Positions 2,737 to 23,300 of a stretch of 64,000 bases of DNA are shown here, in pieces (positions within the stretch are counted from its first letter, which is position 1; the number at the start of each line of letters is the position of its first letter). Position numbers and translations under genes: made by a program. The notes below the pieces were generated by a model that saw only the letters and a program-made list of their open reading frames with translations, ran no database searches and was not told the DNA's origin. Source of the stretch: Psammoneis japonica. Taxonomy: Eukaryota. The stretch is from the NCBI GenBank assembly GCA_008632985.1, contig QPGO01000004.1, forward strand, positions 558,001 to 622,000, given 5' to 3'.

Positions 2737-4195
2737 CTAGACAACAATTGATTTTGTGATTTCACTACAAAGAGCCATAGTCTGTCCTTTTGAAACCTTG
2801 TCCAAGGAGGTGATGACTTGAGGGAGGTCTTGACGAAGCATCTGCAGGTTTGGATTCACAGTGTACTCGTCCTTCATTGCTTGCATGCGCTCCAGGACAC
2901 TTTCATGGATATTGATGGCACTTATGTTGGACGATCCGTTCTTCAGGCTATCGACGTTACGGTGGCACGACCAACAGTCACTAATATTGATCTCTCCTAA
3001 TGAATCAGGCTTGGTGACAAGAGAATCTCGGACCAAGTTGATGTTTTCGGCAAACTTCGTCTTCCAACCCCACAAGCTGTTTTGCAAGGCTTCGCCCTTC
3101 ACTTCTTCTGGGCTGAGAAACGTAAGTTTGCTCTCTTCCAGCCATTCTTTCATGTACTCGAACGCCACATCTGAGAGGCCACGGCGGTGATATCCTCCTC
3201 CTACATTACTATGACTTCCGGGAAACCACACTTCGGTAACACGATCAGAAGCACCCATAAGAGTCGGTGCAAAGGTTCCGATTGTACTGGTGTCGCGGAT
3301 ATGGAAACGCGTGTCGTCCAGAGACACACAATGGACGGCCTTCTTCACGTTAGGGTGTAACTGTTCCTCTTCCTCGCCCAAATAGGTTGCCGGGGGGAAA
3401 CCGGCACAGTTTCGCTGGACCTGGTCAAGATTCTTTGCTTGATCTTGGAGGACCGTATCGAAACATCCAAGGAATTCAACTTCGGGGTCCATCACTTCAC
3501 CTATTCCCTCCTTGCAAACTTTTGAGGTGAAGAGGCGGGCCGATGCCGCTCCGCGGCTAAAACCTATCACATAAATCAAGTCACCTTCCTCGTAGACTTT
3601 GCTCAATCTATCCCTCATGGGATTGACTTGCGCTATTTCCACAAATCCCACGAAGAAATCTATCTTTGAAAGTATTCCTCGGACTTTGGAGATGAAAGGC
3701 AGCGCGTTTTCCCACTTCTGCGCGCCCACTCCTCTGTCATAGAGGGAGACCTGACCATCAACAAACGAGGAATCGTCAGTACGATCGATGCTTCCTCCAG
3801 CGAGGAGGTGAAACCTGAGTATGTTGGTAAAGTCCTTGTCGTTCGCTTCATCGGGGAAATTCGTTTCGGGAGAATTGCCAGATCCATCTGAAATGCGGCA
3901 TACATAGAGAAGAAGTTGTCAGCCTTTCCAGCACAAAAATTGGTATGAACGATCCTGCCGTTCTCATTCTTTTTCCTTCTCCAAGTTCTTCGCGATTACG
4001 AAACAACGTACCGAAGCAAACTAGAATTTTCTTTGCAAACAACGTCGGAAAGTCACAACGACGGCGATGAGTAGTCGACGTTGCAGGCCTGACACCACTT
4101 AAAGCGAGGCTTCGTTGCCCCTGGAAGGCCGCCGCCGACGAAAAGACGAGCGTGGCTGCCGCCAGGACAGCTCCTCTGACGTGATGCATCATCAT
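2737..4195 (-). CDS. DUF2235 (Tle1-like) alpha/beta hydrolase with N-terminal signal peptide; one intron ~3888-4011
   Basis: Spliced KKILVCF|DGSGN..TNI..LY.RGVG, GFSRGA nucleophile motif, FLGCFDTV, VWFPGSHSNVGGG. N-terminus MMMHHVRGAVLAAATLVFSSAAAF. Confidence 0.82.
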
Positions 4196-4657: not shown

Positions 4658-5988
4658 GAGGGCGGTCCAGAGATCGCCTGGTACACTTTTTACGTAGAAA
4701 CTACCAGAGAGCCAATCACGTACATTCCCACACAGACGCAGCACAAAACAGAAAGCATGGCACTCCATCACGCGACCTCACGACGACACCACCTGACGAC
4801 AACGCATCAAAATGGCGTCATCCGTGTCTTTCTGCAGCTCCTCTTTCACTTGCCCGATTGCTCCAAAAGGGCCAGGGGAAGCCAACAAGCTTTCTCTTAT
4901 GACAGAGCAATGCAAACAAAAGTTGTTTTTTGTTCCAAAATCTCAGAATGCAGTGCAACCGATTGTCAAGGCAAACTCGCACGTTGGCGGCAACAACACC
5001 AGTTAATGTTCACTCTAGAACAACAATGGAGACGTGATGCCCCAATGAAACAAAGTCCATGCCCCCATGACAAATTTTAAAGCCAGTTCTTCTTGTTGGC
5101 ATGCAATCTTTAGCTGCTTTTTAGACTTGACAAAATGATCATCTGCCCCGGCTGTCACCCTCTGAGTTTGTTGCATTGGCCAACAAATTGGCAAGCAAGC
5201 CACATGTTTCTAGCTCACAAACGCCTTGCAGCCAAAAGAAGCAATCTAAACTTTCAGAACAGCCATGATGCACTGGTCTGCCGAATCAAACTCCGCATCA
5301 CCAAGTGGGGCGGGGGGAGAACCATTGTCAAAAATGCACTGTGACGGATCTGAGCTCTTGAGAGCTCATCCAGCTTTTGACACCACAGCCCCAAATCACC
5401 ACATTTGTCATGAAGTCAGCCTGATGCTGTGTCTGTGACTTTGCCTCGTTTTGGAATTGCCGTGGCCATCGCATTGCAGAGTTGACATTCTTGACGAGGA
5501 AAAGTGTTTCTGGGATGCCTTGCGACGACGGAGACCCTGCAGAACAAAAGAACAACATAGAAAGAGACAACACATGTGAGTCAAACGGGCATCAATGTGT
5601 GAAGCCTCAACGAAACACACAGCATGAATGGTGACACATGAGGTCGGTCGTGATGCAACAGAAGCGACGCTGTCAACGCGAACCTTCAGTGAGAATTTTC
5701 ACCATCAGCTGCCCATGTGAACCTGTGCACTCTCGAGCTTGTCACACGCCTTGTGCTGTGACGTAAGACACTCCATTGAGAGTACACTACAAAGCACCTC
5801 AGAAACAACCGCATTTTTGAAATCGGCGAAACGCCATTGTCCGTGTTATTTTGCGTGTCATTTTGCGTCGCGAGCCAGAAAACACTCCCAAAACTGTTCC
5901 ACAGGGCAAAATGTGCTGAATCCACACAGATTTGGGTTGTGCCAGGCCATGTAGAAAATGAACGGGCCGAGAACTGTGGTGCGCCCAC
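4658..5988. mobile_element. Nested non-autonomous DNA element inserted in the left TIR of the outer element (TTAA or TA target duplication)
   Basis: TTAA at 4654-4657 and 5989-5992. Ends GAGGGCGGTCCAGAG vs rc GTGGGCGCACCACAG (11/15). Removing it restores AATTTAAGGCCC, matching the outer right TIR. Confidence 0.7.
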
Positions 5989-6639
5989 TTAAGGCCCAGC
6001 GTGAATTAAGGCCCTTGTGCTGTCAGGCTCAAATCATGGATTCGAGGTGCGAGCTCCACAAAAACATCACGAGAACAGTGCTCGACGAATGGTCAGCGGC
6101 CGTTTCCACCTGCAGTGCAGCTGCAAAAAAATGACCATGCCACCACAAATGGAGGTCCAAATGAACAATGCTACACCAATCCTCACCACATTGATGCACA
6201 AATGGATCCTGAGCAGCTTCGTCGCTGCAGTCAATGGATCCATTGACTTGCTCCTCATGGCTCTCCTCTGTTTCTCTGGTGCCTCTCATTGAACTCTTCT
6301 TGCTTTTGAAAATTACAACTAGTTTCTCCTTGTTGTACTGACCTTCACAAAGAAAGATGACACAGTCAACAAACATGATGGAGCACATTCTTCCGTCTTC
6401 GGAGGCTTCTTCGGCGGCGCCATGGTGCATCGTTTATGTCGCATCGATGCGATGTGGGATCCTACGTAGGACGTAGTACTAATTCTACGTATGTGACGTG
6501 GAGGGCCTTAAATCACGACCATCCTATCATCCTCGCTCTTCGGACATTTTGGTTCGCGCGACAAAACTCATCAACTATACGGATTTGAGAAAGTGGAATA
6601 ATTTTTTTTCTGACAAGTTCAACGAGATCTTTCATATAA

Positions 6640-7179: not shown

Positions 7180-7626
7180 TGGTCGCCAAATGAAACGATA
7201 CATTTTTAAGTCGGACGCTCAAGCGGAATTGCAATCTCTTCAATCTCGCATAGGAAAAGCACAATGTTCTGTTCACGTCGACAATATGGAAAGCATTCTC
7301 TCAACGCCTGCTCGTGACAACACAAAAGGATCAAGCAGAGAGATGATGCGGATAGTACAGTAACCGTTGGTTGCATACGGTAGGTAGAGAGCATTGCTTT
7401 TTGAATTGCATGCCGGGCGAAATTATTCATTGGCGGCGTCTCCGCTGATCAAGGTGAAAGATCTTTTGCGTACGAAAGTCTGAGCGTCTCGGGTTGCTCT
7501 CTGCTGTCTAACTGACGTTGTGGTTGTTTTTCTTCTCACTTGAAATAGACACGATCTATTTTGATTTGCTTCAGGTACCATTACCAACTACGTCAGAAAG
7601 AACTGTCTACAATATTCTTAATACTT

Positions 7627-9456
7627 CTAAAGATTTGATGGCAAAAGGACGTCGTCAATGACATGCACAATGCCGTTGCTTGCTTCGATGTCGGTACCGA
7701 CAACTTTAATGCCATTGATAGTTGCACCGACACGCCTGTACCTCTTGAACTGGATATCAACCTGAAGGGCTTCGCCCGCAAGAGCCGTATCAACCGAACC
7801 TTTCATCAAATCGCTAAACCTGACCTTGCCAGGGACGACATGATAAAGAAGAATCTTTTTAAGGGTTTCGGTGTCGGCAACGACAGCATCGAGGGTGGTG
7901 TCAAGCTTCTTCAAAAGTCTGTCAAAACTTGCATTCGTTGGGGCAAATACGGTAAAGGGTCCTTCCGATTGGAGCGTTTCAACCAAACCTGCTGCCTTCA
8001 CAGCTGCAACAAGAGTGGAGAAGTCTTTGTTGGAGCTGGCTACTTCGACAATGTCTGGAAGGGGCTCTGGAGGAATCAGAACCTTGTCGATGACATGAAT
8101 AATGCCATTCGAAGCTAGCGTATCAAAGCTGGTAATTTTCGTGTCACCGTTGAGTTTGGCACACCCGTAACTCTTGATTTCGACCTCAATGCTTCGCTTT
8201 TCAAGCGCCGTTGCTACCGAGCCATCTCGAAGGTCGTCACGAGTGACTACTCCAGGAACGACATGGTAGAGGAGTATGTTCGTGAGGGTTTCTCTGTTCG
8301 CTTCCTTGAGCAGGGCATCCAAGGTGAGGCCGAGCTGCTTCAGGGTCCGTGTGAAAGCTTCGTTTGTGGGTGCAAATACGGTGAAGGGGCCACCACGAAG
8401 AGTATCAACCAAGCCAGCCGTCGACACAGCCTTTACAAGAGTGGAAAAGTCGTCGATGGAACTGGCAACATCAACAATGTCTGGCTTCTTGTCAGTCTTG
8501 GGTTCTGGAGGAATGAGGACGGTGTCGATCACGTGAATGATTCCATTGTTTGCCAATATATTGACGTCAGTGATTTTGACCTTGTCATTAAGGACAACCT
8601 TGTCGCTCTGCACGTCCACATCGATCTCTTTTCCAAGCAACGTCTTGATGGGTCCGTCCTTAAGTTCTTTATCGACAACAATGCCAGGCAGCACGTGATA
8701 CTTCAGAATGTCGGCAAGTGTAGCTTGATTTTCGGGTTTGAGAAGATCGGAAAGGGTCATACCAAGCTTGGAAAATGCTTCATTGGTCGGAGCGAGCACG
8801 GTCAATGGCCCGCCTTTCAGCGCATCCACCAAACCGGCTGCTTGAGCAGCTTTAACAAGCGTCGAGAACATAGCCGGGTTGGCAATGGCTACATCCACGA
8901 CGTCGTTCGTTAGGAACGGGGGTACCAACACAGAATCCACCACTTGCACAAGACCATTGCTCGCCTTAACGTTGCGTGTCAAGACGTTGGCGTTGTTGAT
9001 CTTAACGTTCCCCCGCATCTTGGTTGTAACGACGCTATCACCAAGAAGCGTCTTAATGCGGGCATTGTTTTCGATGGCCTTGCGGTTAGCCTTGACTCTG
9101 CCTGGGACAACATGATACTTGAGTAAACCACGTAGATGCTCAATGTATGAGCTGTCGGTCGTCAACTTGGTAACTAAACCCTTATCCAAAGCGGAGAACG
9201 CTTCATCCGTTGGAGCGAAGACGGTGTAGCGTGGACATCTGGCTCTGTTTCTCCTCCATGTGCAGCCAAACTCCGCGTCGAGGCCAGCGATACCAAGGGC
9301 GGTAACGAGCGTTTTGAACCCGTTGGACTTCGCAACATCCAGAATCGTGACTCGCTTTCTTCGTAGCTGACGTGCTTCGTCTGTGGCATCACCAACAGTT
9401 GAGGCGGTTGAGAACGAGAGACACAACGTGCCCAACAACAAGTAGGGCAGCTTCAT
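7627..9456 (-). CDS. Secreted fasciclin protein with four FAS1 domains (paralogue 1)
   Basis: Signal peptide MKLPYLLLGTLCLSFSTA, RQLRRKR, four repeats of F.TL..A...AGL / TVFAPT.EAF / L.YHV.PG / ASNG.IHVID.VL. Confidence 0.92.
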   Translation of the reverse strand: MKLPYLLLGTLCLSFSTASTVGDATDEARQLRRKRVTILDVAKSNGFKTLVTALGIAGLDAEFGCTWRRNRARCPRYTVFAPTDEAFSALDKGLVTKLTTDSSYIEHLRGLLKYHVVPGRVKANRKAIENNARIKTLLGDSVVTTKMRGNVKINNANVLTRNVKASNGLVQVVDSVLVPPFLTNDVVDVAIANPAMFSTLVKAAQAAGLVDALKGGPLTVLAPTNEAFSKLGMTLSDLLKPENQATLADILKYHVLPGIVVDKELKDGPIKTLLGKEIDVDVQSDKVVLNDKVKITDVNILANNGIIHVIDTVLIPPEPKTDKKPDIVDVASSIDDFSTLVKAVSTAGLVDTLRGGPFTVFAPTNEAFTRTLKQLGLTLDALLKEANRETLTNILLYHVVPGVVTRDDLRDGSVATALEKRSIEVEIKSYGCAKLNGDTKITSFDTLASNGIIHVIDKVLIPPEPLPDIVEVASSNKDFSTLVAAVKAAGLVETLQSEGPFTVFAPTNASFDRLLKKLDTTLDAVVADTETLKKILLYHVVPGKVRFSDLMKGSVDTALAGEALQVDIQFKRYRRVGATINGIKVVGTDIEASNGIVHVIDDVLLPSNL

Positions 9457-10610
9457 GTTTGGCGTTTCGTGTTTTCTCCAAGGACTTCGCTGATCGAAAG
9501 GCACCGATCTCTATTTTGTGAGAGTTGTAACATCACATTTCTTGTGCTCGACGCATTTCAAAATCCCGAACAATTGCTGAGTCACCATCCGAGATAGTGA
9601 CTTCCGCATTTTTTACTTATTGGGTTAGTAATGTCGGGAATGGCAGTGTAATATCAGCGGGACAGCGCACGGGATCACGCTTTTGTCCTTCCCTTATGTA
9701 ACACACGGTACTAGATCAAACTTTTGTTTCCCGCGAGTCTTTTCTTGTAACCCCGAAGGTTCTGGCTGAGCTGTTCAGCAGCACCTGCAAAATGTATTGG
9801 GCTTCCGTCAGCTAAAAAGTGAGCTCTGACGCAGCATCATGACTCAGCGACAAGCGGGGAAAACAACACACCTGATCCAACTTGCCAAATACCTTAGGTT
9901 GATATTATCATCATTCAGACCCTTTGGATTTCGAATATGAAGGTCATTCAAGGTTGTCCTGGCATTCTTCATACTTGAATTTGTGTCCGTCATCACATCT
10001 TACTGTACTTTTTACTTCGTATCTGAGAAAAACCCATGCGTACATACAGTACGTACCATACGACTGTGTAGTTAGCTTTACAGTACGATCGATATTGTAC
10101 GATAGTATGTGACATTTTCCACAAGGTCATTAGATTATTCTGTCCTACTTCTATTCTAGCTACTGTACGAACGACGGATACGACGTAATGTGATGTGCAC
10201 GATGAGCATAAGCTGTAACCGACCAAGCCTCAAACATCCCGATCGCCATGACGGTGACAGCTTGATCTTGCTTCTCTTGGAGCGCTGTGAGTGGTTGGAG
10301 TGGAGCGCTGTGAAAATCATAAAAACCTCATGTACAAAGCACTCCATGCCAAGCATCATGCACTGGCACTTGACATTCAAAAAGAATGTGAGCCCAAACT
10401 GTGGCACATGTGCCAGCACCGATGCACCCCGCAGCTTGGCTCTGCTGGTGGTTTCAACCTGAGCTCACCTTTGGACACCACTTGCAACCCAAGGACAGCA
10501 GGGAACTTGTCAAAATCATGCTCTCTTTGCTCTTCCAGCAGAGATGAGGTGGAGCAAGGTGGCGCCAACGACCTTCCTTGTCAGTTTCGCGAAAAATGCA
10601 AAAAAAGCTG

Positions 10611-11160
10611 TGAGAGGCAAAAGCAGAAAGAAGTCATGACAAGGCCCAAAACAAGGAGTGGAGGGCATTTTTGTGCCACTCTTGTGCAAGGCCAAGTTTG
10701 ATCTCTGCCAACTGTGTGGACTTGTGCAAGTCTGTGGCGTGCATCAGCCAAGTCTCACAGCAAGAGGTTGCCAGCCAAGGCAGAGACAATTTGAAAACAC
10801 AGCATCTCTTGTGCTTTGATGGTGGTCTGAGATAAAAAAATCTTTGTGAGGGGCTCTGGCAATCAGCCAAACAGCAAAAAGAACAAGCCACATGAGAGCA
10901 AAAGCAGAAAGGAGCTGTGACAAGGCCCAAAACAAAAAGTGGAGGGCTTTTTCCATGCTCTTGTCCAAGGCCAACAAGATCAATCTCTGACAACTGCGTG
11001 AACTTGTGCAAGTCTGTGGCGTGTGCCAGCAGCCAAGTCTTGCAGCAGCAAGACAAAGAACATGCCAGCCAAAATGGAGACAATCTGAGAACACAACATC
11101 TCTTGTGCTCTGATGGTTTTCTGTGATGAAAAATTCTTTGTGTGAGGAGCTCTGGCAGTG
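10611..11160. repeat. Diverged tandem duplication, ~282-bp period
   Basis: TGAGAG(G)CAAAAGCAGAAAG..TGACAAGGCCCAAAACAA..CTTGTGCAAGTCTGTGGCGTG..CATCTCTTGTGCT at ~10611-10862 and ~10893-11160. Confidence 0.85.
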
Positions 11161-13570
11161 GCCACAAAAACAGATGCACGAATGACATTTTTTTGCATCT
11201 TGCTTGCACTCATGGCCCAACAACCTGCCTGACAAGCTGCACGTTGAGCACCAATGGCTCCACAAATGTCAATGGCAGAAGCAGTGGCAAAGGCAACAGC
11301 CACAACATGCAAAATGCAAACCCCCGCAAGCTGGCCAGCCAGCATGGCATTGATGGCTTGAGTGTGATGCTTTTGTCAACCTGCACAGAGCACAGAGTCT
11401 GCCACAAGCTTGTCAAGCTTGCGCTTGCTTGGCAAACATGGAATGGCTTCTTGAAGTGTGGCCCTCCTGTGAGCACCCAGGTTTGATTTGTGCAGTGGCA
11501 GGCAATCATGATGTGCAGCACAAGAAAAGGAAAAAATGCACTGATCAAGACAGTGCAGTTGTTGTTGCAAGCAATCAAAAAAAGAGCAGGTGAGGAGGTG
11601 CCATGATTTTGCCAAAATCAAGGCATCCTTTTCAGCAAATTGCGGCAGAACAAGAGTGCCAAGTGCTGTTTTGGCTGAAAAATCCACAAATGAGAAAAAG
11701 CAGAAGCCAGTTGAGAACAAGCAGGCTTCTGCCTCCCAAAATGATGACCAGCTTGACTTTGTTTTCAAAGATTGTCAACATCAGCCAATCAGAAACCAAG
11801 ACAACATGTCACAGTCTCAAGTTGTTCATGTGTCACTGTCAGCTCAAGCACCTTTTGAGTTTTGAGCTCCAAATGGCTTCTACAACAAAATTTGTGTTGT
11901 TGAAAACATGCGCTTGCCATCTCAAATCATCTTTGAGAGACATTTGCTCTTGTGACTGTGCATCCTCAACAAAGCGCCACATTTTTTGGCACTTTTTCTG
12001 CAGAAAATGCTGCAACAACCATGGCACCACACCTCCAGCATTGCCTGCCAACTCTGTGGGTTTGCAAAGACAAGAGATGAATGTTTGGCAAGTGCTGGCT
12101 GTTGCTGGAGATGACACATAATTTGTCCAGTGCTTTTGCAGCAGAAGAAAAGCTGAGAATTTCATTGAGTTTGGGCAGAAAAGTGAACAAGGCTGCAGTC
12201 ACTTTTTCTGCTCAAAGGAGAAGCCAGCCAGCGGCACCCAGCCTGTTCATGCAGCCACAGCACTGAAAGTTGTGCCGCAGTGGGATGTTTGAAAATGTGC
12301 AGATGGAGGGCACAGCAGTGGCTTGTCCATGAAAGATGACAAACAAGAGCTGCCAGTGCAAAGCAAAGCAGAGCCAGTTTTCATCATCCCCTGGAAGCAC
12401 ACAAAAGGAGAGTTTGCAGCACACCTTTGCAAGCAACAACCAACAAGAAAGACAATGTTGTGACCAACAATGTTTTGCAAATCAGCTCAGTTGGCAAGCA
12501 ACGATGCTCCAAGTCACAATTTTGTCTGCTGCAATGCAGCAAACAATGGACCCATTGGACCCAGCAAAGCCATTCTGATCACAGGTGTCTCTTTGCCAAG
12601 AACATCCTCACAACTGTTTGTGCTCTGCAGACAGCTGCTTTGAGAACCTTTGGGTCCATTGCTGGCTCTGCTGCCAGCTCCCTGAGTCACATGGCAAGCC
12701 AGAGACTGGAGAACAGAAAAGCTGTGGAACTGATGTGCTTTTGCAATGGCCGCAATGGAGGCAGCAGTGATGACAACAAAAGTGCTGGCTGCAGTGGCAG
12801 TGGCAAAACCATCTCAGACAACAAAGCAGTGATTTCTCTACATCCATTTAGAAGGAAGAAATTTGTGAGAAAAAAGAGGAGGTGTTTGTCCTCAATGATG
12901 AATGACCTTCCAGTCAAAACAAGCTGCACAACACAGGCTGCACACCCACATGTTGCCAGAAAACTCAGAACTCCCCAAACGTCATGGCGCACTTGACCAA
13001 AGCACAAGCACATTGCAAGACCACCCTTTGAGTCAAATGATGGTTGCTTTGACAACTTTGTCAAGCCAAGCCATGACCAAACAGCCTTTGTGGCACTCAC
13101 AAAGTGGTCATCTGCTGAATGAATGCATGCATGTCTCCAGTGGATGCCATGATGACAGTGGCACCTGTTTTGTGGTGGAAAAGAGATGTTGTTGGAGCTG
13201 CTGGCACTGCAAGTGATGAGAGAGAGAGAAAGGTGTGCACCCAGCTCTCAAGGCTTCATTTCCAAGCACGTGATGCTGCATTGACTCTCTCAAGCAGGTT
13301 CACGGTGCACGTCATTGCTCCTGAGATAAAAGCAGTGCCCACAGGAACCAACAAATGTTGTCAATCAACTTTGATGCTCTCTGGGTCAAGTGTGTGCTGC
13401 CTTCTTGCAAGCATTTGTTTCTGGGCAGCACTTGACTTTTTGCAAAGGTGGCATCAGCTGTTGCTCAAGGTTCTGTCCCTCCAACAATGCAACAAAGACA
13501 AGCCCAACAAGCACCAATTGGATTTCACTGCACCTGCATTGGCAGATGCAAATCACAACAACTTTGTCTT

Positions 13571-13612
13571 TGTGTGTGTTTGTGTGTGTGTGTGTGTGGG
13601 GGGGGGGGGGGC
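13571..13612. repeat. (TG)n microsatellite followed by poly-G
   Basis: Directly visible. Confidence 0.9.
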
Positions 13613-13619
13613 TTCATGA

Positions 13620-15250
13620 GTTTTGAGCAGATTTGCAGGCTGGGATTTTGTCTTGTGAGAAGATTCCAGGGGAGGCAAGGTTGCAACAATGGCAGGGGTT
13701 TCTTGTGTGGATGGTGCAGAACTTTCTTGAGGGTCAAAGTCTGCCTGCAGCAGGCCAGTGCATTGAACACCAAATTGCAGCAAAGCATTGGCACAGTCAA
13801 AAACCAGAGCAGGGACAACAGCACCACGGTGGTGGAACAAGAGCACAAGCTGGCACCTGTTGTGCCTTCAGCTCAGTGAAAGTGCTCTGTTTTCAAGTTG
13901 GAAATGAAGGCAAGTGAGACACTGGCCTTGTTGGATTGAAAAGGTTGGCAGTTGTTTTGCAAGCATTGAGGTGCAGTTGCTCACAACTTGACCCCAGTTG
14001 ATCACCAACAATTGCACACAAATGGCCAGAATTTGAAGGCACAAGATGCCTTGAAACCCATCACTTGAAGAAGGCCAAAGAAATCTGGAGCTTGAGGAGT
14101 GACAAGATGAGTGGGAAGCACAAGTCATTGCACTGCAAAGTGAAGTCCAGGCACCCCATTGTGTGTTGCCCCAAAGAGTGCACACAGCAACAACACAAGG
14201 CACAGTTTGATGCGGCACAAGAGAGCAATTTGTGAGGTTGACACTGGCAGCAACAGCAAAAGCCATGGCTTGCTTTTGAAAACTTTCAAATTGCTGTTGG
14301 CAACAACTGCTGCACAGGCCATCACATGTGGCTGCAATGTTTTCTTGATGCTTCTGAGATTGGTGCTGTGACAAAAAATTGTCAGACTTGAAGAACAGGT
14401 CATGTCAGCAATTTCTGAAAAAGAGTGCACATGAAGGTGAGCACAACTTTTGCAGGTTGCATGGTCAAAACTGCACTGTTGCACCCACTGGAGCTGGAGT
14501 GCACTTGGCAGCCAACTCGCTGCAAAGAGAAAGCTGTTGTCCCAATGTTGTTGTGCAGTGGAAAAGCAGAGAGGCAGCTGACAAGAGCATCATTTTCAGC
14601 TTTGCCACCCTGGAGAGACAACAAAATCAAGCCCCCTCCTGTTGCCCACCAGTGCCTCTGCTGGCATTGCATAAGAGCTGCAGTGCACACTGCTTGCTTT
14701 TCAGCAAGAAGTGCAGTGGGCAGTGTCAGAAAACAAAGAAAAGGCAAAATCTCAGGTGTGGAAAGCCACCACAGAAAAGGTGGCAGAAACAGTCCCATGG
14801 GAGGGAAAACTCAAGACAGGAGATTGCACCACACTTGCAGTCAGACATGATGACTGACCCAGCTGCCAGGTGGTTTGAAATGGGCAAAGTGTCAGCCACA
14901 AAGAGCAGTGCCATGCATCACATCTGGGGGTGCCACTCAGCAAACCTGGCCATGCAGATGTCTGTGGCCAAGGAAGGTCATTTTCAAGAAGAGAAGAGCC
15001 AAATTTATGGCTGAACTTGTCAGAGTGGTGCAGAGTCACTGTGGTCTTCAAAAAAGGCCAACAGGAAATGCACTCTAAAGGCAAGCTCTGCACAGCTGAG
15101 TGGATGCACCAGACAACCAGAAATGTGGTGTGGTCACTTTCAGCACAGGAAACTGGACAAAGACAACCCATGGAGCAGGGAGCACAAAAAACAAAGGTGC
15201 ACACTCTGATTGAGCAAGCCCAGCACAGCATCTGGTGTTCAGCAGAGACA
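13620..15250 (+). pseudogene. Ty3/Gypsy LTR-retrotransposon pol relic (RNase H-integrase; RT very degraded)
   Basis: Frameshifted motifs: LLKTFKLLL (LKEFRNILLG), HEGEHN (YIKGEHN), CQKTKKRQNLRCGKPPQK|VAETVPW, MTDPAARWFEM (MIDPATGWFEI), KFMAEL..SHCGLQKRPT (EFMAEF..DYGLKKRP), EWMHQTTRNVV (ERIHQTIGNM). Confidence 0.75.
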
Positions 15251-18200
15251 CCACATTGAGTGCACCAAGGCACCGGCTGGGGGAGCTCACAGGACAAAAA
15301 GCAGAAGCTTGCCTGGACAAATGACAAGCAAAAGAAATCCAAGTGCTGAGAGTGCTGACACACTGAAGCACTTGGTGCTCATGAAACAAGAGCATGGGTG
15401 GGACTGAGTGCAGGGCTGTCCACTGTTGTGCAGGTCCCGCCACAGAGTTGCCTGTGCAAGCAACAACAAGATGCACTGATGTGTGCTCAATCTGTGGCAA
15501 ACAGTGCCCTGTTGTCAGTTCTCAGCAAGGCACATGGTGATCTGTGGCCTCATCATGGGGGAGCATCATGCAGCATGCATTGTGCTGACAGCTGGCAGGT
15601 GCCGGTGTGCATCCTGTGGCGCTGCCCTTCTGGAGGCAAGGGCACAGATGAGCATGCTGAATGAGCCTGTGTGCCTTGCCATTGTTCTGCCAAGCAGAGG
15701 CACTGGTGTGTTTGTGCACCAGCCAGTTGCATGTGAGCTTCCACTGCAATGTTTGTGGCTGCACTGCAGGATGCCTTTCTGTGGCTGGCACATGATGCAG
15801 CCACTCACTTTGGACAGCTGTTTGATGGCTGTCATTAGAGGAGAAGCAAGAAATTTTGAGAAATGCCCAGGAAAGCTGGGGTGTGCACAAAAAGGGCATC
15901 AGGTCTGTTCAGCACTCACCAAATCTGGCTAAAAACCACAAATGCACTGGTTGGCAGACTCTTTCAGTGCAAATTCAGCACAAAATGTTTTGGCCAGCAG
16001 ATGGCTGGATGCCCCCCCAAGCCTTGGCCCCCTTTTCTGGGATGATGCATTTGTGGGCTCACAACACCTCACTGTTTGAGCACCATTTTTGGGATGGGCA
16101 AACCACAAAGTCTGAACAAGCATGCCCTGTTGGTCTTCTTGTTTGAGCTCTTCTTCTTTCCAAGCTGGGTGGTCACATTTGTTGATCCACTCTTTGGCCA
16201 GCCACATGGCAAAGATCATCTGTTGGACCAGTGGGACAACTTCTGCTCTGCCTGCAGCAGGGTTGGCACCTTCTCTCTCAAAGTTGTGTGGAGCACACCA
16301 ACAGACAGCTGGAGTCACAGCCCAAGCTTGTGGTGTCCCAACTTGTCCTTTTCTTCTTTGACCATCCTGCACAGTTTTTTCAAGGCCAACCTTGCGCCTT
16401 CTTTCCCCCCTCCCTCATTTTCTTTTCATGGCTTGCTCCCTTCTTGCGTCCACCGAGTCATTGGAAAGCTTGAGTGCTGAGCCTGGGCTGCACTGTGGGT
16501 CTGAGGTTGCTGCAAGTGTGTGCCACTTTGCATGTGCTGCCAGTTGCTGATGTCCTTTCTTTGTGACATTCTTCTTGGTGATGTTGGCTTGCTGTGGCCT
16601 CTTTCTTCATGCCTGGTCCTCTGGTGCCCTTGACCATGTGCTGCTCTCATCCTCCATCCAATCTTTCTTGCAGCTTGGGCTGGCTCTGCCTCATCTGTGC
16701 CCCACACAGGAGCATTTTTCATCTTGCTGTGTGTGCCCTTGGTTGGAGCATTTTGGAGCAGCTTTGGCCAGCTTTTCCTCCTTCTGACTTCCTTCATTTC
16801 CAAGAGCAGCTTTGAAATGGCCAGTTGTCAAGAAGCCTCAGTTTGGGAGTTTCCTTGCTCAGGTTTTTAGGCTGTGCTTGTCAGGGACCCCCCTTTTGGT
16901 TGTTGGCAGAGTGTCTCTTGCACACTTGGGCAGCCATGGTCAGCACAAAGTTTCTCCCACCCTTGGCTGGGGTCAGTCCTGTGCATCCAGTGGCACTGCT
17001 TCTAAGAGTTGGCTTGTGGTTGCTGCAAACTTTCCAAGACAGAGTCCTCCTGCACATGACAAGCAATCCTGTGGTGTGCTTTTGTGCAAACTCCACCAGG
17101 CACCAACATCTCAGATCACAGAAAAGCAGGGTCTGGGTTTTGGATCCTGAGTCATCTTGGAAGACATGTGGGTTTGCTCTGCATGTTGGTCACCAGTGCC
17201 TGGGCTGTGTGCTAATTTGTGAAATTGCAGCACCAGGCTCAGAACCTGCCAGAACTTCAAAAACAGAAGTGGCACAAAATTGAGCAAGGTCTTGTCTTTC
17301 TTTGGCATCAAGACTGACTTTGCAGCTTGGCATGTTTGGTTTGTGGCACAGGGGCACTTGGCTGGAGCTTCTTTGCCAGGTTTTGCACAGAGCAAGATCT
17401 TGCTCCTTGAAGTTGGGCAAACTTGGCAGCCCTTCTCTGTGTTTTTTTTTCAGCCAATGACCCACCATGACACTTCTTGACTCAAAAGAAAGGCATGTCT
17501 CTGTCAAAACCAGTCACATCAATGCTTTGATTGCACTTGTTCAAAGCTCTGGTTCTTTCTGGACCCATTCACACTTTTGCCATGGCCATCTTGTTGAGGC
17601 AGCATGGCTTTTCTTGTGAAAGCAAGAGCCCACGCTCAACTCTGGCAGTCACCAACTAATCAAGTGGCACCTGCCTTGGGCACCAAGGGTGTCTCTCTTG
17701 ATGTTTTGCACTTCATGCTGGGGTGTCTCTTTTTCCATTCATGGGGAGGGGTTGTTGGTGTCTTGGCAGCAATTGAGATGAGCTCCATTTCTGCCTCTGT
17801 GGCTCAAGTGTGCATTGCAGGGCACCACTGAACTTGCCTCCACAGCAGTGCTGCAGAAGATCTGATTGTTTTAGAAGACATTCCTGTCCACCTTGACCCA
17901 GCAGGAAACTTTGATGCTCTTTGGCATCCTTGTCATGCTGAGAAGTGTTGCTTTCTTCTTCTGGCAGCTGCTCACAGCCTTGTTCTTGATGCGCCCTCAG
18001 CATCCCCCCCCTGAGTTGCTCTGCTTCTGTTTTTTCTTCTGGAGCTGGAGCAACTCCATGGCATCTGCTGGCAGCACCTCACTTCCTTTTCTCAGCTGCA
18101 CCATCATCTTTTGACTCTTTCTAAGATTCCTTTGCACAGCTCTTTTCAAACCCCTTTTCCCACTTCATGGGGCACATTCAAGATGTCAATGAGCGCTCAC

Positions 18201-18399
18201 ATGCAGAGATCTCTTCTCTCCAGCATCTTGTTGACAAGACTCATGGTGGCACAAAACAAAAACACAAAATTTGCAATTTGGTGTTGCCACCCTGCCAGCA
18301 CTTCCACCCAGCAACTCCAGCAACAAGCTGACCCACATGCACAGCACACTTGCAGCATGGCAGGAGCACACAAATTGTGAAAATGTCTTGCCAAAAACA

Positions 18400-19900
18400 G
18401 CTGGCAATGGCTTGAGTGCCTGTGACAGCAAACTGCCAAGCCTTCCAAATGCTTGGCTTGAGTGCTGGTTTTGCAACAGCCTGCCAGCTTCTCAACCTGT
18501 GTGCCAGGCAAAAGAGGTGCTTTTTGCCTGAGTCAAAAAGATGTGCTTTGTCCTTTGCCAAGCAGCCATCTGCCCAACATTGTCCTTGCTTCCTCTCAAT
18601 GCACCAACTTCCTGGTTTCCATGCCATGTGTCCATGAGTGCCATCATTGTGCGCACCCCACAGATCCCACAGCCCAACCACCCAAGTGCCAAGCATTTTC
18701 AAGCCTTTGCTCCAGGAAGAGGACAACGTGATGCACAGCAGACAAGGCTGCTGAGCCTCATTTTGCAGCACAAAGAAGTGGTTGGTGAAGATGTGCTGCT
18801 GGCCAGCAATGCTGTCCCAAGAGGAGGCTGATGCAACAGGCAGCGCATCTCTTCTGGACATGGACCCGTGGTGGTGGGGCAGCATGGGATGGAGGGAACA
18901 AGAGCTTGCTGCAGACCAGCCATTGTCAACAGCTGCCTTTGAGCTGGTGCCTTTGAAGTGAGCATTGCTCTGATGCTCTTTGCTTTTCAGCTCCAGCAGT
19001 CAGCATCCTGCGCAACAGATTGGGTCATGTGCAAAGCTTGTCCAAAGACCCAGCCAAATTTGAGTGTCAGCTGGCTTGCCAATGTCTCTGACTCAAAGAG
19101 TTGCTGCTGCTTCTGCTCAGATGGGTGCTGAGAGCATTTGTGCCTTTTGCTTCACTGCTGCTTGGAGAGAGTTTGTGGCACTGTGTGCAACAACCACAAT
19201 GCTCTCTTGCAGTTTTTCATGCCTTTGTTGCTGCTCACAAGGGCTGTTGCCAAGCTCAACTTCCTAAAAAGAAATGCAGCAGGGAAAATGGCACACTTTG
19301 GCTCGTGCTGCATTTGACAACAAATGGGTGGCCAACACATGCAGACATTGAGGAATGTGCACAATGGCCCCATTGTCAGTTGTCTTGACAGCAAAAACCA
19401 CTCTGTGACAGCAGCGTTGTCTTTTTGTTGAGCCTGACTCACTGCTCTGAACACTGCCAGCAAGTCGAAGAGCTCCAATGCCACACAACAGCTCCTCAGC
19501 ACGTTTTCTCAGCTCTCCTTGTCACACCTGCACATGCACTTGTCAAACATGCTCCTGTTGTTGTTGAGAGTTTTTTGTCATTTTGTTCAATCTTTGCACT
19601 CAACCTTTTGCATGTTTCTTTTGCTGCAAAAACTCAAAACAGTGAGGCAATGGATCTCTGACCAGAAACAGCTCTAAAACTCCAGGCATTTGTGGGGATC
19701 AGCAGTGGGCACTGGGCTGCTGTGGGTGGGGGCATGTGGAGCAGAGCCAGACAATTGTGTGTGGACAGCAGCAGCCCACAGCAACTCTGTCTTCCAAGTG
19801 CAGTTTTGACAAACAAAAACAACCCCACCCACAGTGCCAATTGACAGAGGCTGCTTCAACGCAAGCTCTGCACACACAAGATTTTTTAGACAGCTGCTGC
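18400..19900 (-). pseudogene. Non-LTR retrotransposon (LINE) ORF2 C-terminal relic
   Basis: RNase H-like ALELFDLLAVFR..KDNAAV, Cys-knuckle-like DPICCAGC, and WSKGLKMLGTWVVGLWDLWGAHNDG..HLF..RLRSWQ resembling the W..RN..H tail of LINE ORF2. Confidence 0.5.
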
Positions 19901-20381
19901 AGTCCAGAGAACCCCTCAAAATCAAAATCCAGCGCTGTCCACATCAAGCCAATCCAGTCTGGAACAAGATGTCAGTGCAATGGCTCATGTTCTTGGGAAC
20001 TGCACATTTGAAAAATCACAGATCTCCCCGCCCTGATGTCTTTGAGTGCCCTGGCTGGCAACATTGTGCTGGGGCCAACACCCTCTTTGGAGCAAACCAA
20101 CTCTATTTGCTCTTCTGCTTCTCTCACTGATCTTGTTCTTTTGCCCAATGTCCAGAACATCCATGCTGTTTCCGTTCTCCTTCTTGTTCCTGATTCTCAC
20201 TCCAATGTTGACCTCATCTTCAGAGCCGTTTCCTTTTGGATCTGTCGTGTCAGTGTCTTGTTCTCAGATCCCTTGCTGCCGTCCCACCAGTCGTTTCCAT
20301 TGTCAAAGCAGGTCTGCTGCAGCTAGAGGCGCTTGTGTTCCTCGTCCTTCAACTCACCAAAATAATAAAAAATTGTTTTGC

Positions 20382-23300
20382 AGACAAGGTCTGCACTCGA
20401 AAAGCACTGTACGCAACCAGCTCGAAATTTGGGTTGGTCTTTTTTTTTTGTCGCCAAACGAACAAACAATGCATCTAAGTCGGATGCTCCTTCAGAGTTT
20501 CAATCTTGCGGAGAAAAATCACGAACGATGTTCTGTTCACGTCGTCAATGTGGAATACATTCTCTCAACGCCTGCTTGTGACAACACGAGAGGATCAAGC
20601 AGAGAGATGATGCGGACAATACAGTGCCCGTTGGTTGCGGAGGTCGAGATCAGCGTTTTGGATTGCATACCGGGCGTAATTTTGTGTTGGCGTCGTCTCT
20701 GCTGATCGAGGTGAGAAGTCTTTTCGATTGCATCCGAGCGTCTCGGGGCGCTCTCTGCTGTCTTGGGTTGTTTTTCTTCTCACTTGAAATAGGCACGAGC
20801 TACATTTTGCTTCAGATGTCATAACCAACTTCGCTTGAACAAACTGATCTACAACACTTTTAAAATATTTCTAGAGATTTGACGGCAGAAGAACATCGTC
20901 GATGACATGCACAATACCGTTGCTTGCTTCAATGTCGGTATCAACAACTTTAATGCCATTGATAGTTGCACCGACCCGCCTGTACCACCTCTTGTACTGG
21001 ATATCAACGTGAAGGGCTTCACCCATAAGAGCCGTATCAACCGAACCTTCCGTCAAATCGCGAAACCTGACCTTGCCAGGGATGACATGATAAAGAAGAA
21101 TCTTTTTAAGGGTTTCGGTGTCGGCAACGACAGCATCGAGGGTAGTGTCAAGCTTCTTCAAAAGTCTGTCAAAACTTGCATTAGTTGGGGCAAATACGGT
21201 AAAGGGTCCTTCCGATTGGAGTGTTTCAACCAAACCTGCCGCCTTCACCGCTGCAACAAGAGTGGAGAAGTCTTTGTTCGAGCTGGCTACTTCGACAATG
21301 TCTGGAAGGGGTTCTGGAGGAATTAGAACCTTGTCAATGACATGAATAATACCATTCGAAGCTTTCGTATCAAAGCTGGTAATTTTCGTGTCACCGTTGA
21401 GTTTGGCATACCTGAAATGCCCGAAGAAGTACTTGACGTCGACCTCAATGCTACTTTTTTTCAGCGCTGTAGCTACCGAGCCATCTCGAAGGTCGTCACG
21501 AGTGACTACTCCAGGAACGACATGGTAGAGGAGTATGTTCGTGAGGGTTTCTCTGTTCGCTTCCTTGAGCAGGGCATCCAAGGTGAGGCCGAGCTGCTTC
21601 AGGGTCCGTGTGAAAGCTTCGTTTGTGGGCGCAAATACGGTGAAGGGGCCACCACGAAGAGTATCAACCAAGCCAGCCGTCGACACAGCCTTTACAAGAA
21701 TGGAAAAGTCGTCGATGGAACTGGCAACATCAACAATGTCTGGCTTCTTGTCGGTCTTGGGTTCTGGAGGAATGAGGACGGTGTCGATCACGTGAATGAT
21801 TCCATTGTTTGCCAAAATATTGACGTCAGTGATTTTGACCTTGTCGTTAAGAACAACCTTGTCGCTCTGCACGTCCACATCGATCTCTTTTCCAAGCAAC
21901 GTCTTGATGGGTCCGTCCTTAAGTTCTTTGTCCACAACAATGCCAGGCAGCACGTGATACTTCAGAATGTCTGCAAGTGTAGCTTGATTTTCGGGTTTGA
22001 GAAGATCGGAAAGGGTCATACCAAGCTTGGAAAATGCTTCGTTGGTCGGAGCGAGCACGGTCAATGGCCCGCCTTTCAGCGCATCCACCAAACCGGCTGC
22101 TTGAGCAGCTTTAACAAGCGTGGAGAACATAGACGGGTTGGCAATGGCTACATCCACAACATCGTTCGTTAGGAACGGGGGTACCAACACGGAATCCACC
22201 ACTTGCACAAGCCCATTGCTAGCTTGTACGTTGCGTTTCAAGACGTTGGCGTTGTTGATCTTGATGTTCCCCCGCATTCTGGTTGCAACGACGCTATCAC
22301 CTAGAAGCGTCTTGATGCGGGCATTGTTTTCGATAGCTTTGCGGTTGGCCTTGACTCTGCCTGGGACAACATGATACTTGAGTAAACCACGTAGATGCTC
22401 AATGTATGAGTTGTCGGTCGTCAACTTTTTCACCAACTCCTTATCCAACGCGGAGAATGCTTCATCCGTTGGAGCGAAGACGGTGTAGAGAGGACATCTG
22501 GCTCTGTTTCTCCTCCATGTGCAGCCAAACTCCGAGTCAAGGCCAGCGATACCAAGGGCGGTAACGAGCGTTTTGAACCCGGCGGACTTTGCAATATCCA
22601 GAATCGGGACTCGCTTTCTTCGTAGCTGTCGTTCTTCATCTGTGACTTCACCAACAGTCGAGGCGGTTGAAAAAGAGAGACACAACGCGCCCAACAAAAA
22701 GTAGGGAAGCTTCATGTTTGGCAATCGTGTTTTCTCCAAGGACTTCACTTATCGTAAAGCACGTTATTTTGTGAGAGTTGTCACATCACATTCTGGGGTG
22801 CTCGACACATTTCAAAATCCCGAACATTTCCTGAGTCACCACCCGAACTGGTCACTTCCGCATTTTTTACTTATTGAGTTACGGGTCGGTAATGGCATTG
22901 TACCATCGGCGGGACAGTGCACGGGATCACGCTTTTGTCCTTCCCTTATGTACCTCACGGTACTAGATCAAACTTTTGTTTCCCGCGAGTCTTTTCCTGC
23001 AACCCCGAAGCTTCTGGCTGAGCTGGTAGCAGCTCCGCAAAATGTTGCGCTTCCGTCAGCGAAAAAGTGAGCACTGACGTGTGCGACATGCGGGCAAAAC
23101 AACGCACTTATTGAATATTTGACAAAAACCTAATATTACTTATGTACGAAGGTCATTCAGGAATGTCCTACGACTAGAGTCATGACATTCTTCAAGAACC
23201 CATAACCCAAGCATCAACAAACCGACGCGGTTCGTTCCCGCCCGACCGCCATGATCGATGACGGATGACGGTGACCGGCTCGATCTTGCTTCTCTTGGAG
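20382..23300. repeat. Segmental duplication copy B; direct repeat of 7059-10283
   Basis: See copy A. Confidence 0.9.
20871..22715 (-). CDS. Secreted fasciclin protein with four FAS1 domains (paralogue 2)
   Basis: MKLPYFLLGALCLSFSTA.., nearly identical to 7627-9456, intact ORF. Confidence 0.92.
   Translation of the reverse strand: MKLPYFLLGALCLSFSTASTVGEVTDEERQLRRKRVPILDIAKSAGFKTLVTALGIAGLDSEFGCTWRRNRARCPLYTVFAPTDEAFSALDKELVKKLTTDNSYIEHLRGLLKYHVVPGRVKANRKAIENNARIKTLLGDSVVATRMRGNIKINNANVLKRNVQASNGLVQVVDSVLVPPFLTNDVVDVAIANPSMFSTLVKAAQAAGLVDALKGGPLTVLAPTNEAFSKLGMTLSDLLKPENQATLADILKYHVLPGIVVDKELKDGPIKTLLGKEIDVDVQSDKVVLNDKVKITDVNILANNGIIHVIDTVLIPPEPKTDKKPDIVDVASSIDDFSILVKAVSTAGLVDTLRGGPFTVFAPTNEAFTRTLKQLGLTLDALLKEANRETLTNILLYHVVPGVVTRDDLRDGSVATALKKSSIEVDVKYFFGHFRYAKLNGDTKITSFDTKASNGIIHVIDKVLIPPEPLPDIVEVASSNKDFSTLVAAVKAAGLVETLQSEGPFTVFAPTNASFDRLLKKLDTTLDAVVADTETLKKILLYHVIPGKVRFRDLTEGSVDTALMGEALHVDIQYKRWYRRVGATINGIKVVDTDIEASNGIVHVIDDVLLPSNL

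Follow-up and report, generated by a model that had tools for sequence, protein, structure and literature searches.

TpA and CpG steps are depleted in sharply bounded blocks of a diatom chromosome, probably by two region-limited transition processes

We analyzed a 64-kb window of the Psammoneis japonica genome (contig QPGO01000004.1, positions 558,001 to 622,000), in which three blocks poor in TA steps, here termed islands, together occupy about a quarter of the sequence. Island 1 lies between two tandemly duplicated fasciclin genes. A 450-bp direct repeat, made up of two copies of a host intergenic promoter region, marks the two ends of island 2. The features discussed below are as follows (positions within the window).

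About 4800 to 6400, no strand: island 3, weaker and partly converted, with TA at about one third of normal.
7630 to 9510, minus strand: left-flank fasciclin gene with four Fasciclin domains, an unmutated tandem duplicate of the right-flank gene.
10334 to 20323, no strand: island 1, 9,990 bp, with TA (observed/expected 0.03) and CG (0.09) both nearly erased.
10611 to 11188, no strand: two-copy tandem repeat (about 282-296 bp) in island 1.
20874 to 22748, minus strand: right-flank fasciclin gene with four Fasciclin domains, unmutated, 92.6% identical in protein to the left-flank gene.
41619 to 42068, plus strand: outside (left) copy of the duplicated host intergenic promoter region, TA-rich up to 42012.
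42013 to 45889, no strand: island 2, 3,877 bp, with TA erased (observed/expected 0.05) and CG about halved (0.44).
42391 to 42679, no strand: 24-bp tandem array of 12 copies in island 2, identified with TRF.
45455 to 45940, plus strand: inside (right) copy of the same promoter region, at the right end of island 2.

The fasciclin duplicates are 89-96% identical over about 2.5 kb and neither is mutated; TA is normal or high in these genes and in the short intergenic stretches. Run X2, like the other runs listed, is not recorded as RNA; one of its contigs is spliced over the left fasciclin gene, and none aligns to the island. No deaminase gene was found in the 64-kb window, and a search of the whole window against Rfam returned no matches.

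Step counts were compared with a background of 46,600 bp of the same window, which is mostly coding. TA falls from 37.0 per kb in the background to 2.1 in island 1 and 3.1 in island 2, and CG from 56.5 to 5.5 and 26.8, while TG rises from 72.0 to 113.2 and 110.9 and CA from 70.4 to 116.0 and 102.4. Summed pyrimidine-purine steps stay constant (235.8, 236.8 and 243.2 per kb, respectively), the outcome expected from transitions at TA and CG alone. Island 1 holds 21 TA (about 369 expected), 55 CG (about 564 expected), 1131 TG and 1159 CA, and its gain in TG plus CA matches its loss of TA plus CG. The Poisson log10 P of the TA deficit is -126 in island 1 and -45 in island 2, and that of the CG deficit is -167 and -17; every 1-kb background window has at least 19 TA and at least 41 CG. 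In island 3 the low-TA segment spans 5201-5800 (p < 1e-4), and the partial conversion of this island is taken as an early stage.

An earlier note on this DNA had reported about 20 TA between 10284 and 20330, and 0 TA with 4 CG between 12181 and 12780. Our recount gives 24 TA, 56 CG, 1139 TG and 1161 CA for the longer interval and the same figures for the shorter one; islands 2 and 3 fall outside the coordinates given there. Judged by TA positions, the edges of island 1 lie at 10333 and 20324, with TA-free gaps of up to 1345 bp inside, and those of island 2 at 42012 and about 45890. The sharp boundaries and normal adjacent genes that had been described are borne out, as the edges fall within about 100-150 bp and TA in the genes is normal or high. 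On the right side of island 1, CG depletion and TA depletion stop about 150 bp apart.

The identity of the island DNA was sought at the protein and repeat level. Pfam searches of all 116 ORFs of at least 75 amino acids detected no reverse transcriptase (RT), integrase, gag or other family, nor did searches of the six read-through frames of islands 1 and 2 (E <= 0.01) or of the 13.5-16.5 kb region (E <= 10). No LTR pair and no inverted repeats were found. The earlier description of these blocks as retroelement relics with Gypsy motifs is therefore not upheld; the strings RCGK (14754) and HCGL (15037) are present, but in different frames. Island 1 shows no host-like coding signal, as just 2 of its 972 windows exceed the threshold for coding. 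One coding-like ORF occurs in island 2 (42105-42791, minus strand), and the 99 matches returned by an exhaustive phmmer search with it are all to a low-complexity repeat in unrelated repeat proteins. Nor is island 1 a row of decayed fasciclin copies, since the fasciclin protein gave no tblastn match in the islands. The inside promoter copy is a host-derived part of the target. With empty Pfam searches and no host-like coding signal in island 1, any description of the island DNA as foreign or silenced is an assumption.

Logan contigs of a public run, X1, span 9715-13558 and 13617-20973 at a word depth of about 64, like that of the flanks, and word depth also indicates that island 1 is single-copy except for two short pieces. 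The two contigs (3.9 and 7.4 kb) differ from the window by 6 and 7 letters plus 13 gap letters, and of about 2,290 sites in island 1 only 2 depart from the window in the choice of TG or CA; X1, whose library type is not recorded, may be the window's own source sample. Since independently built contigs reproduce it, island 1 is not a base-calling artefact, a concern that the earlier note had itself raised. Twelve positions inside island 1 differ between X1 and the window, and 11 of these are changes between CG or TA and TG or CA. They include two TG<->CA double swaps, and two TA sites are polymorphic, one of them at 14672 (TAA>TGA). These 12 differences could reflect allelic or strain variation, or assembly errors that remain. 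The process has probably been recent, in that the two assemblies differ in island 1 almost only at these steps.

Duplicated sequences provide internal controls. With the outside promoter copy as near-ancestral reference, the inside copy has lost 10 of 11 TA steps, seven by A>G or T>C and three in small deletions. None of its 14 CG steps has been lost by transition; 11 are intact on both bases, and 13 C and 11 G are unchanged. At bases outside TA, A>G is seen at 3 of 70 A and T>C at 6 of 87 T. Transitions thus affect 7 of 22 bases in TA compared with 9 of 157 other A/T bases (Fisher p = 0.0009), far in excess of the other A:T>G:C changes against which it had been proposed that TA changes be checked. 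The copies of the 24-bp array share 62-83% identity in bases and 98-99% in purine/pyrimidine code, and differ almost solely by alternation of TG, CA and CG at four adjacent column pairs. Across the 12 in-register copies, columns 4-5 hold TG 8, CA 2, CG 1 and CC 1; columns 10-11 hold TG 7, CA 2 and CG 3; columns 16-17 hold CA 7 and TG 5; and columns 23-24 hold CG 5, CA 4 and TG 3. The two-copy repeat of island 1 shows four CA<->TG double swaps between its copies. These controls demonstrate mutation in place. Purine/pyrimidine-recoded BLAST returned only known repeats under strict settings and noise under loose ones.

The TA steps that survive do so in a narrow context. YTAR accounts for 23 of 33 survivors (background 17.8%, p = 8.5e-11) and RTAY for none of the 33 (background 28.9%), which identifies T-A-Y as the hot motif. 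Survival of RTAY, mixed and YTAR sites is 0.12, 0.25 and 0.95 in island 3, 0, 0.03 and 0.39 in island 2, and 0, 0.04 and 0.20 in island 1, so that survivor context forms a kinetic series over the three islands with the order of loss RTAY > mixed > YTAR. Loss at T-A-R is slower than at T-A-Y by a factor of ten or more. A 3' pyrimidine, C above all, is favored for loss (TAC survival 0.009-0.26). Two changes are exceptions to T-A-Y, the polymorphic site at 14672 and a promoter-copy site, TTAG>TCAG.

The products carry this context less uniformly. Island 1 has gained 21 TGC/GCA per kb versus 2 TGA/TCA, and 40.7 per kb of the product class YTGY/RCAR versus 7.1 of the other class. In island 2 the classes split 22.0 versus 18.1 per kb, and this bookkeeping favors T-A-Y in island 1 only. 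Gains exceed losses in islands 2 and 3, and their ancestral composition therefore differs from that of the coding-rich background. Compared with a context-free model, one biased to TAY improves the fit for island 1 but not for the product composition of island 2, and one biased to TAR worsens the fit for both. When host sequence was mutated in silico by two conversions only (TA and CG to TG/CA), the dinucleotide correlation rose from 0.68 to 0.93 for island 1 and from 0.79 to 0.985 for island 2, and the trinucleotide correlation from 0.66 to 0.91 and from 0.75 to 0.95. Apart from these conversions, the k-mer make-up of the islands is host-like.

TG and CA are present in near-equal numbers (1131:1159 in island 1, 430:397 in island 2). 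They alternate at random (runs test z -1.46 and 0.08, autocorrelation about 0), which indicates that both DNA strands are hit. CG is likewise converted to TG or CA symmetrically on both strands, and array columns hold CG, TG and CA. CG is depleted in the order TCG > ACG and CCG > GCG, a mild preference for a 5' pyrimidine. Survival in island 2 is 0.08 for TA versus 0.47 for CG. The loss of CpG is slower than, and spatially separable from, the loss of TpA, and is probably a second process for that reason.

The reading that we favor, with a probability of roughly 70%, is that two separate transition processes, each limited to certain regions, have rewritten gene-free blocks of the chromosome in place. 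The data show that one converts TpA to TpG or CpA, equivalent to A>G on either strand, striking sites independently and strands equally, and that the other, slower, converts CpG to TpG or CpA. They also show that targeting follows a sharply bounded domain and not sequence homology or copy number, since neither the fasciclin duplicates nor the promoter copy outside island 2 is mutated. In the TpA step, an enzyme directed to silenced chromatin may deaminate adenines of nuclear DNA, and the resulting hypoxanthine would be read as G at the next replication. The CpG step may be deamination of cytosine or methylcytosine in the same silenced chromatin. Decay of 5mC at CpG, as in vertebrates, plants and methylated TEs, is also a symmetric conversion of CG to TG/CA and fits the CpG half of the signature, but unlike the island process it cannot remove TpA. 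The claim that a second process beside CpG decay turns TA to TG/CA is supported by the array, the promoter copies and the counts. Among adenine deaminases, TadA and ADAT2-ADAT3 act on U33-A34 of tRNA, and the natural TadA site is U-A-C-G. ADAR shares with them a preference for 5' U/T, and in the islands T lies 5' of the putatively edited A; the 3' pyrimidine preference, especially for C, resembles the TadA site. These enzymes act on RNA, whereas the island changes fall on the two DNA strands one site at a time and do not form runs on either.

The TpA process is probably of the same kind as one reported in the rhizarian alga Bigelowiella natans. A preprint (Mettrop et al., bioRxiv 10.64898/2026.01.13.699255) describes TpA-specific hypermutation of NCLDV and virophage DNA integrated in the B. 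natans genome and proposes an ADAT2-like deaminase as the cause. In mutation-accumulation lines, 231 of 302 new substitutions lay in two integrated viral regions, where nearly all were A>G or T>C and all were on TpA; the regional de novo rate was about 1000 times the genome rate, and the process was active in some lines only (bioRxiv 10.64898/2026.01.13.699255). The diatom islands share with this case A>G/T>C changes at TpA that give TpG/CpA in discrete regions of an otherwise normal genome, and a long-term mark of TpA-poor, CpA+TpG-rich clusters, many of them unannotated in B. natans. Regional polymorphism is raised in B. natans, and a possible counterpart here is the set of X1-window differences at these steps. 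The two cases differ in host, a diatom being a stramenopile, and in depletion, which is near saturation here (TA observed/expected 0.03-0.05) versus a Rho of 0.45 in the B. natans NCLDV region. The target has no detectable viral or TE gene and is in part host-derived here, versus integrated viruses there. CpG is also lost from the diatom islands, whereas the preprint text is silent on CpG and B. natans shows no C>T excess. That text gives no flanking context to set beside the T-A-Y rule. Only the B. natans case comes with a directly measured rate. The earlier note's statement that no named mechanism exists is superseded by this report; its observation and its second process stand, in contrast to its Gypsy and RIP-like attributions.

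Two alternatives concern the chemistry. One dual-specificity deaminase, ADAT2-like and acting on A and C in DNA, could lie behind both losses, which occupy the same three blocks, both end as TG/CA and, in island 1, both favor the product class YTGY/RCAR. We consider this unlikely, even with ADAT2 of amphioxus and Trypanosoma editing both A and C (cited in bioRxiv 10.64898/2026.01.13.699255). The extents of loss are uncoupled in island 2, the inside promoter copy has lost nearly all TA and no CG by transition, the CG and TA boundaries are offset at the right edge of island 1, and B. natans shows no C>T excess. Because TpA is palindromic, T>C and A>G are indistinguishable from sequence, and a TET/JBP-type oxygenase might instead oxidize T at TpA to 5-hydroxymethyl- or 5-formyl-uracil, which would mispair with G. 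5-Formyluracil is mutagenic towards T>C, and the survivor rule read on T (R-T-A hot, Y-T-A cold) is equally possible. We nonetheless give this thymine route only a small chance, as the sole precedent argues for adenine deamination (bioRxiv 10.64898/2026.01.13.699255).

The remaining alternatives are weaker still. RIP in Neurospora is C>T and turns CpA into TpA, and basidiomycete RIP targets TCG, which the mild TCG preference of the island CpG loss recalls. RIP and the islands also have in common transitions that disable DNA in place and sharp local shifts in composition, and the tandem genes around island 1 and the direct repeat around island 2 are the kind of setting in which a homology-triggered defence would recognize duplicated DNA and mutate both copies. 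The repeat-targeted, RIP-like system proposed in the earlier note is nevertheless very improbable. The fasciclin duplicates are unmutated, only the inside one of the two promoter copies is mutated, so that homologous copies outside the domain are spared, and island 1 is single-copy bar its two short pieces. RIP, also described in a basidiomycete form (PMC3318451), makes TpA from CpA, the opposite outcome to the A>G changes that destroy TpA here (2.1 vs 37.0 per kb, island 1). Insertion of a reverse-transcribed transcript after A-to-I editing by an ADAR- or ADAT-type enzyme would account for the T before the edited A, a 5' U preference being typical of such enzymes (bioRxiv 10.64898/2026.01.13.699255). 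It predicts long one-strand A>G runs, against a TG:CA ratio of 1:1 in random order; tandem copies were struck independently after the array had formed, Pfam found no RT or retroelement signature in the islands, and the X1 and window assemblies still differ at these steps. We regard it as scarcely credible, and the same holds for intrinsic composition or selection, with the islands as foreign or functional sequence in which TA and CG were always missing or are not tolerated. No homolog or parent sequence was found to show directly what most of island 1 looked like before mutation, but a host-derived promoter segment has lost TA only inside the island, tandem copies hold TG or CA at random in the same column, the k-mer make-up is that of host DNA plus two conversions, and survivor context follows one kinetic series across three islands. 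Misreading of modified heterochromatin bases as G or T would draw on the unrecorded library type of X1 and its possible identity with the source sample, yet misreading on both strands would give TG on the top and CA on the bottom strand at each site and break k-mer contigs, whereas the 3.9- and 7.4-kb contigs, at full depth, match the window almost throughout. The chance of such an artefact is minimal.

Beyond our favored reading of two region-limited processes, the diatom and chlorarachniophyte cases could reflect one ancient genome defence, SAR-wide or older, in which a nuclear deaminase is joined by a cytosine-deaminating arm. This broader proposal is tentative, and we think it more doubtful than probable. 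Within it, the deaminase would act on the adenines of 5'-T-A-Y-3' sites in either strand of duplex chromosomal DNA, and guidance would come from a silent-chromatin domain and not from homology. If so, it would be a natural dsDNA adenine editor, and the TA steps of invading or silenced DNA, rich in stop codons and promoters, would be erased beyond recognition.

The one earlier report of A>G hypermutation specific to TpA in chromosomal DNA is the 2026 preprint on the rhizarian alga (bioRxiv 10.64898/2026.01.13.699255), and our literature search turned up none for diatoms. That a diatom carries this mark too suggests that the process is widespread in SAR lineages. The diatom case adds the T-A-Y motif with its kinetic order RTAY > mixed > YTAR, equal and independent hits on both strands, and targeting by domain and not by homology. 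Should an adenine deaminase acting on duplex DNA prove responsible, the process would be relevant to genome defence and to base-editing technology.

The signature, loss of TA and CG at unchanged pyrimidine-purine density, can be scanned for in any algal genome. No TA-free island occurs in 80 metagenome loci, 398,623 bases in total, that surround genes related to the flanking Cys-tRNA synthetase (best identity 77%). This is a small sample of related algae made up mostly of short genic contigs and therefore of little bearing on other diatoms. The longest TA-free gap among these loci was 560 bp, in a contig with 69% G+C. The only stop codons in the islands are TGA, and such blocks therefore yield long spurious ORFs, a risk for genome annotation.

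Between ~10.3 and 20.3 kb of the window, a whole-window 1-kb dinucleotide table revealed a joint collapse of TA and CG steps and a concurrent rise of TG and CA. The scarcity of TA at 10284-20330 described in an earlier note was upheld on recounting (24 TA), and its counts for 12181-12780 (no TA, four CG) were reproduced. Placed from TA positions, the edges of the block lie at 10333 and 20324, and stretches within it as long as 1345 bp contain no TA. Relative to a background of 46,600 bp taken from this window, the 9,990 bp of this block (island 1) hold 21 TA against ~369 expected (Poisson log10 P = -126) and 55 CG against ~564 expected (Poisson log10 P = -167); no background kilobase falls below 19 TA or 41 CG. 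Two further blocks lie outside the coordinates of the earlier note.

TA-depleted islands
10334-20323: island 1
42013-45889: island 2, TA observed/expected 0.05, CG observed/expected 0.44
~4800-6400: island 3, a weaker block

Island edges are sharp, to within ~100-150 bp. The sum of TA, CG, TG and CA per kb is nearly constant (235.8 in background, 236.8 in island 1 and 243.2 in island 2), so that the lost TA and CG reappear as TG and CA.

The bases themselves are real. A public sequencing run, X1, contains 96% of sampled words from 9500-19499, and its contigs span 9715-13558 and 13617-20973 at a word depth of ~64, equal to that of the flanks, with 6 and 7 letter differences from the window plus 13 gap letters. 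The choice between TG and CA is the same in the window and X1 at all but two of ~2,290 sites. Misreading of a modified base on both strands would have set TG against CA at ~90 sites per kb and shattered the k-mer contigs, which are intact. The base-calling artefact considered in the earlier note is thus countered by separately assembled contigs that match the window across island 1, although X1 is possibly the window's source sample and hence an independent assembly, not necessarily an independent isolate. Island 1 differs between the window and X1 at 12 positions, 11 of which are exchanges of CG or TA with TG or CA.

Island 1 exchanges, window to X1
CG to TG or CA: 3
TA to TG: 2
TG to CG: 2
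TG/CA double swaps: 2 (four positions)

Such steps take up ~47% of island bases, so that eight single changes and two double swaps of this kind are unlikely by chance. A double swap would reflect independent resolution of one TA or CG in two lineages or alleles, or one modification event on both strands. The differences, which are unpolarised, may be alleles, strain differences or errors.

Repeats within the islands record mutation in place. Copies of a 24-bp tandem array in island 2 are 62-83% identical in bases and 98-99% identical in purine/pyrimidine code, and therefore nearly all differences between copies are transitions. The variable columns are adjacent pairs.

Variable columns in 12 in-register array copies
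Columns 4-5: TG 8, CA 2, CG 1, CC 1
Columns 10-11: TG 7, CA 2, CG 3
Columns 16-17: CA 7, TG 5
Columns 23-24: CG 5, CA 4, TG 3

The copies were mutated individually after the array had formed, with TG or CA as a random outcome. Likewise, the two copies of a ~282-296 bp tandem repeat in island 1 differ by four CA/TG double swaps. Island 2 is also bracketed by a direct repeat of a host intergenic region, a promoter pair with an outside copy at 41619-42068 and an inside copy at 45455-45940. Eleven TA lie in the aligned part of the outside copy; in the inside copy seven of these show A>G or T>C, three fall in small deletions and one is kept. The same changes affect 3 of 70 A and 6 of 87 T outside TA (Fisher p = 0.0009). 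At CG in this pair, C is unchanged at 13 of 14 sites and G at 11 of 14, with no losses by transition. Host sequence given TA and CG conversions only, in silico, correlated better with both islands in k-mer composition.

Correlation (r) with the islands, before and after conversion
k = 2: island 1, 0.68 and 0.93; island 2, 0.79 and 0.985
k = 3: island 1, 0.66 and 0.91; island 2, 0.75 and 0.95
k = 4: island 1, 0.62 and 0.89; island 2, 0.70 and 0.91

In composition, the islands resemble host-type DNA that has undergone two conversions and not exotic DNA. TA loss and CG loss can be told apart, since in island 2 and in the inside promoter copy TA has gone but a good part or the whole of the CG is retained. 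Both strands were struck equally, site by site. TG:CA is 1131:1159 in island 1 and 430:397 in island 2, in random order along each (runs z -1.46 and 0.08, autocorrelation ~0, control regions alike), which speaks against one-strand RNA or cDNA editing and against processive single-strand tracts.

Flanking bases determine which TA survive. YTAR accounts for 23 of 33 surviving TA against 307 of 1722 in background (binomial p = 8.5e-11), and RTAY for none of the 33 against 497 of 1722.

TA survival relative to background density
Island 3: RTAY 0.12, mixed 0.25, YTAR 0.95
Island 2: RTAY 0, mixed 0.03, YTAR 0.39
Island 1: RTAY 0, mixed 0.04, YTAR 0.20

Islands 3, 2 and 1 form a kinetic series. Because TA is palindromic, the survivor pattern makes the hot adenine one with a 5' T and a 3' pyrimidine (T-A-Y) or, read on thymine, equally a hot R-T-A. 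The changed A has a 3' pyrimidine at all three informative sites of the promoter pair (GTAG>GCAG, TTAT>TTGT, CTAC>CTGC). Products in island 1 rise by 21 per kb for TGC/GCA and 2 for TGA/TCA, or, by class, by 40.7 for YTGY+RCAR versus 7.1 for RTGR+YCAY; the accompanying ApT drop and GpC rise are the expected outcome of TAT>TGT and TAC>TGC. Relative to a context-free simulation, TAY weighting improved the fit modestly for island 1 and brought no gain for island 2, and TAR weighting fitted both more poorly. Exceptions to the T-A-Y rule are TTAG>TCAG in the inside promoter copy and TAA>TGA at 14672 between assemblies. The context of CG loss is milder, with island 1 survival of 0.04 for TCG, 0.09 for CCG, 0.10 for ACG and 0.18 for GCG.

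The target is not set by homology. Island 1 lies between two tandemly duplicated fasciclin genes (89-96% identity over ~2.5 kb, 92.6% between the proteins), both of which are unmutated; in the promoter pair, mutation is confined to the copy inside island 2; and island 1 is single-copy by X1 word depth, bar two short pieces. These three results speak against the repeat trigger proposed in the earlier note. Summed X1 contig depth reaches 170 at 15505-16071 and 486 at 17773-18339, versus ~64 elsewhere in island 1, and many loose X1 contig ends near 18298-18351 have flanks with TA and CG, so short pieces of island 1 recur elsewhere in the genome, apparently amid unmutated DNA. The fasciclin duplication (7261-9773 and 20525-23025; a four-domain gene) has a period of ~13.25 kb, and island 1 fills the gap between copies. 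Island 2 is as long (~3.88 kb) as one period of its bracketing repeat, the mutated stretch being roughly one repeat unit; such a layout would be expected from insertion by a single crossover or from tandem duplication, with only the inner junction copies silenced.

The proposed identity of island 1 as a Gypsy relic is unsupported. The strings RCGK and HCGL are present but in different frames, and no LTR pairs or inverted repeats were found. Pfam searches gave no meaningful match for any of 116 island ORFs of at least 75 aa, no family at E <= 0.01 in the six read-through frames (X at stops) of islands 1 and 2, and none even at E <= 10 for 13.5-16.5 kb. A codon-usage scan trained on in-silico-mutated host ORFs, which recovers 73.5% of true in-frame windows, flagged 2 of 972 windows in island 1 and, in island 2, only the minus-strand ORF 42105-42791, whose database matches are confined to its low-complexity repeat. 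With TA gone, TGA is the sole remaining stop and long ORFs are expected in every frame; TAA and TAG are almost absent from 10160-20330 and 41875-45900, where many ORFs of 100-317 aa occur on both strands. Gene callers would probably predict false genes in these islands. The islands may derive from foreign, mobile or host DNA that has decayed.

Of the earlier proposal, a second process that erases TpA stands, while the retroelement identity and repeat trigger are wrong or unsupported. RIP was rejected as the explanation, its outcome being opposite and the islands' targeting not homology-based. The statement that no named mechanism exists has been overtaken by one close precedent found in a full-text literature search, a study of Bigelowiella natans (bioRxiv 10.64898/2026.01.13.699255). 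In that study, 231 of 302 new substitutions in mutation-accumulation lines fell in an integrated giant-virus region and a virophage region; nearly all were A>G or T>C, and every one lay on TpA. The rate was ~6e-7, and activity was restricted to a subset of the lines. In the B. natans genome, 124 clusters of TpA-poor, CpA+TpG-rich windows were counted, most of them lacking annotation, and an ADAT2-like adenine deaminase was proposed. Neither CpG nor diatoms come up in its text, which also gives no flanking context (bioRxiv 10.64898/2026.01.13.699255). The defining TpA signature and regional confinement are shared, whereas the diatom islands differ in host lineage, near-saturation, an additional separable CpG loss, the T-A-Y rule and the lack of recognisable viral genes. 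We rate them as a further case of this very recently described kind of process, in which TpA would be lost through adenine deamination in DNA.

The host is a diatom, a flanking dehydrogenase being ~70% identical to diatom proteins, and genes neighbouring the islands are ordinary.

Other coding features
2740-3918, minus strand: ORF with a T6SS Tle1-like phospholipase catalytic domain (Pfam PF09994, E = 4.8e-32), in a diatom chromosome
27911-32113, plus strand: adjacent ORFs with LRR repeats and a Roc GTPase domain
32148-33266: trypsin-like peptidase ORF, next after the LRR/Roc ORFs

A contig of another run, X2 (catalogued as 'DNA?'), omits 95 bases bounded by GT..AG at 7451-7547 within the left fasciclin gene, so that the contig is apparently derived from a transcript and at least one small intron is present in the gene. 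The 231 bp at 9990-10220, immediately left of island 1, show the opposite bias, with 28 TA and 13 CG (TACG/CGTA 10 times, GTAC seven times) and ~120 TA per kb beside an island block at 2 per kb. A boundary element, a promoter or chance might account for this TA-rich block.
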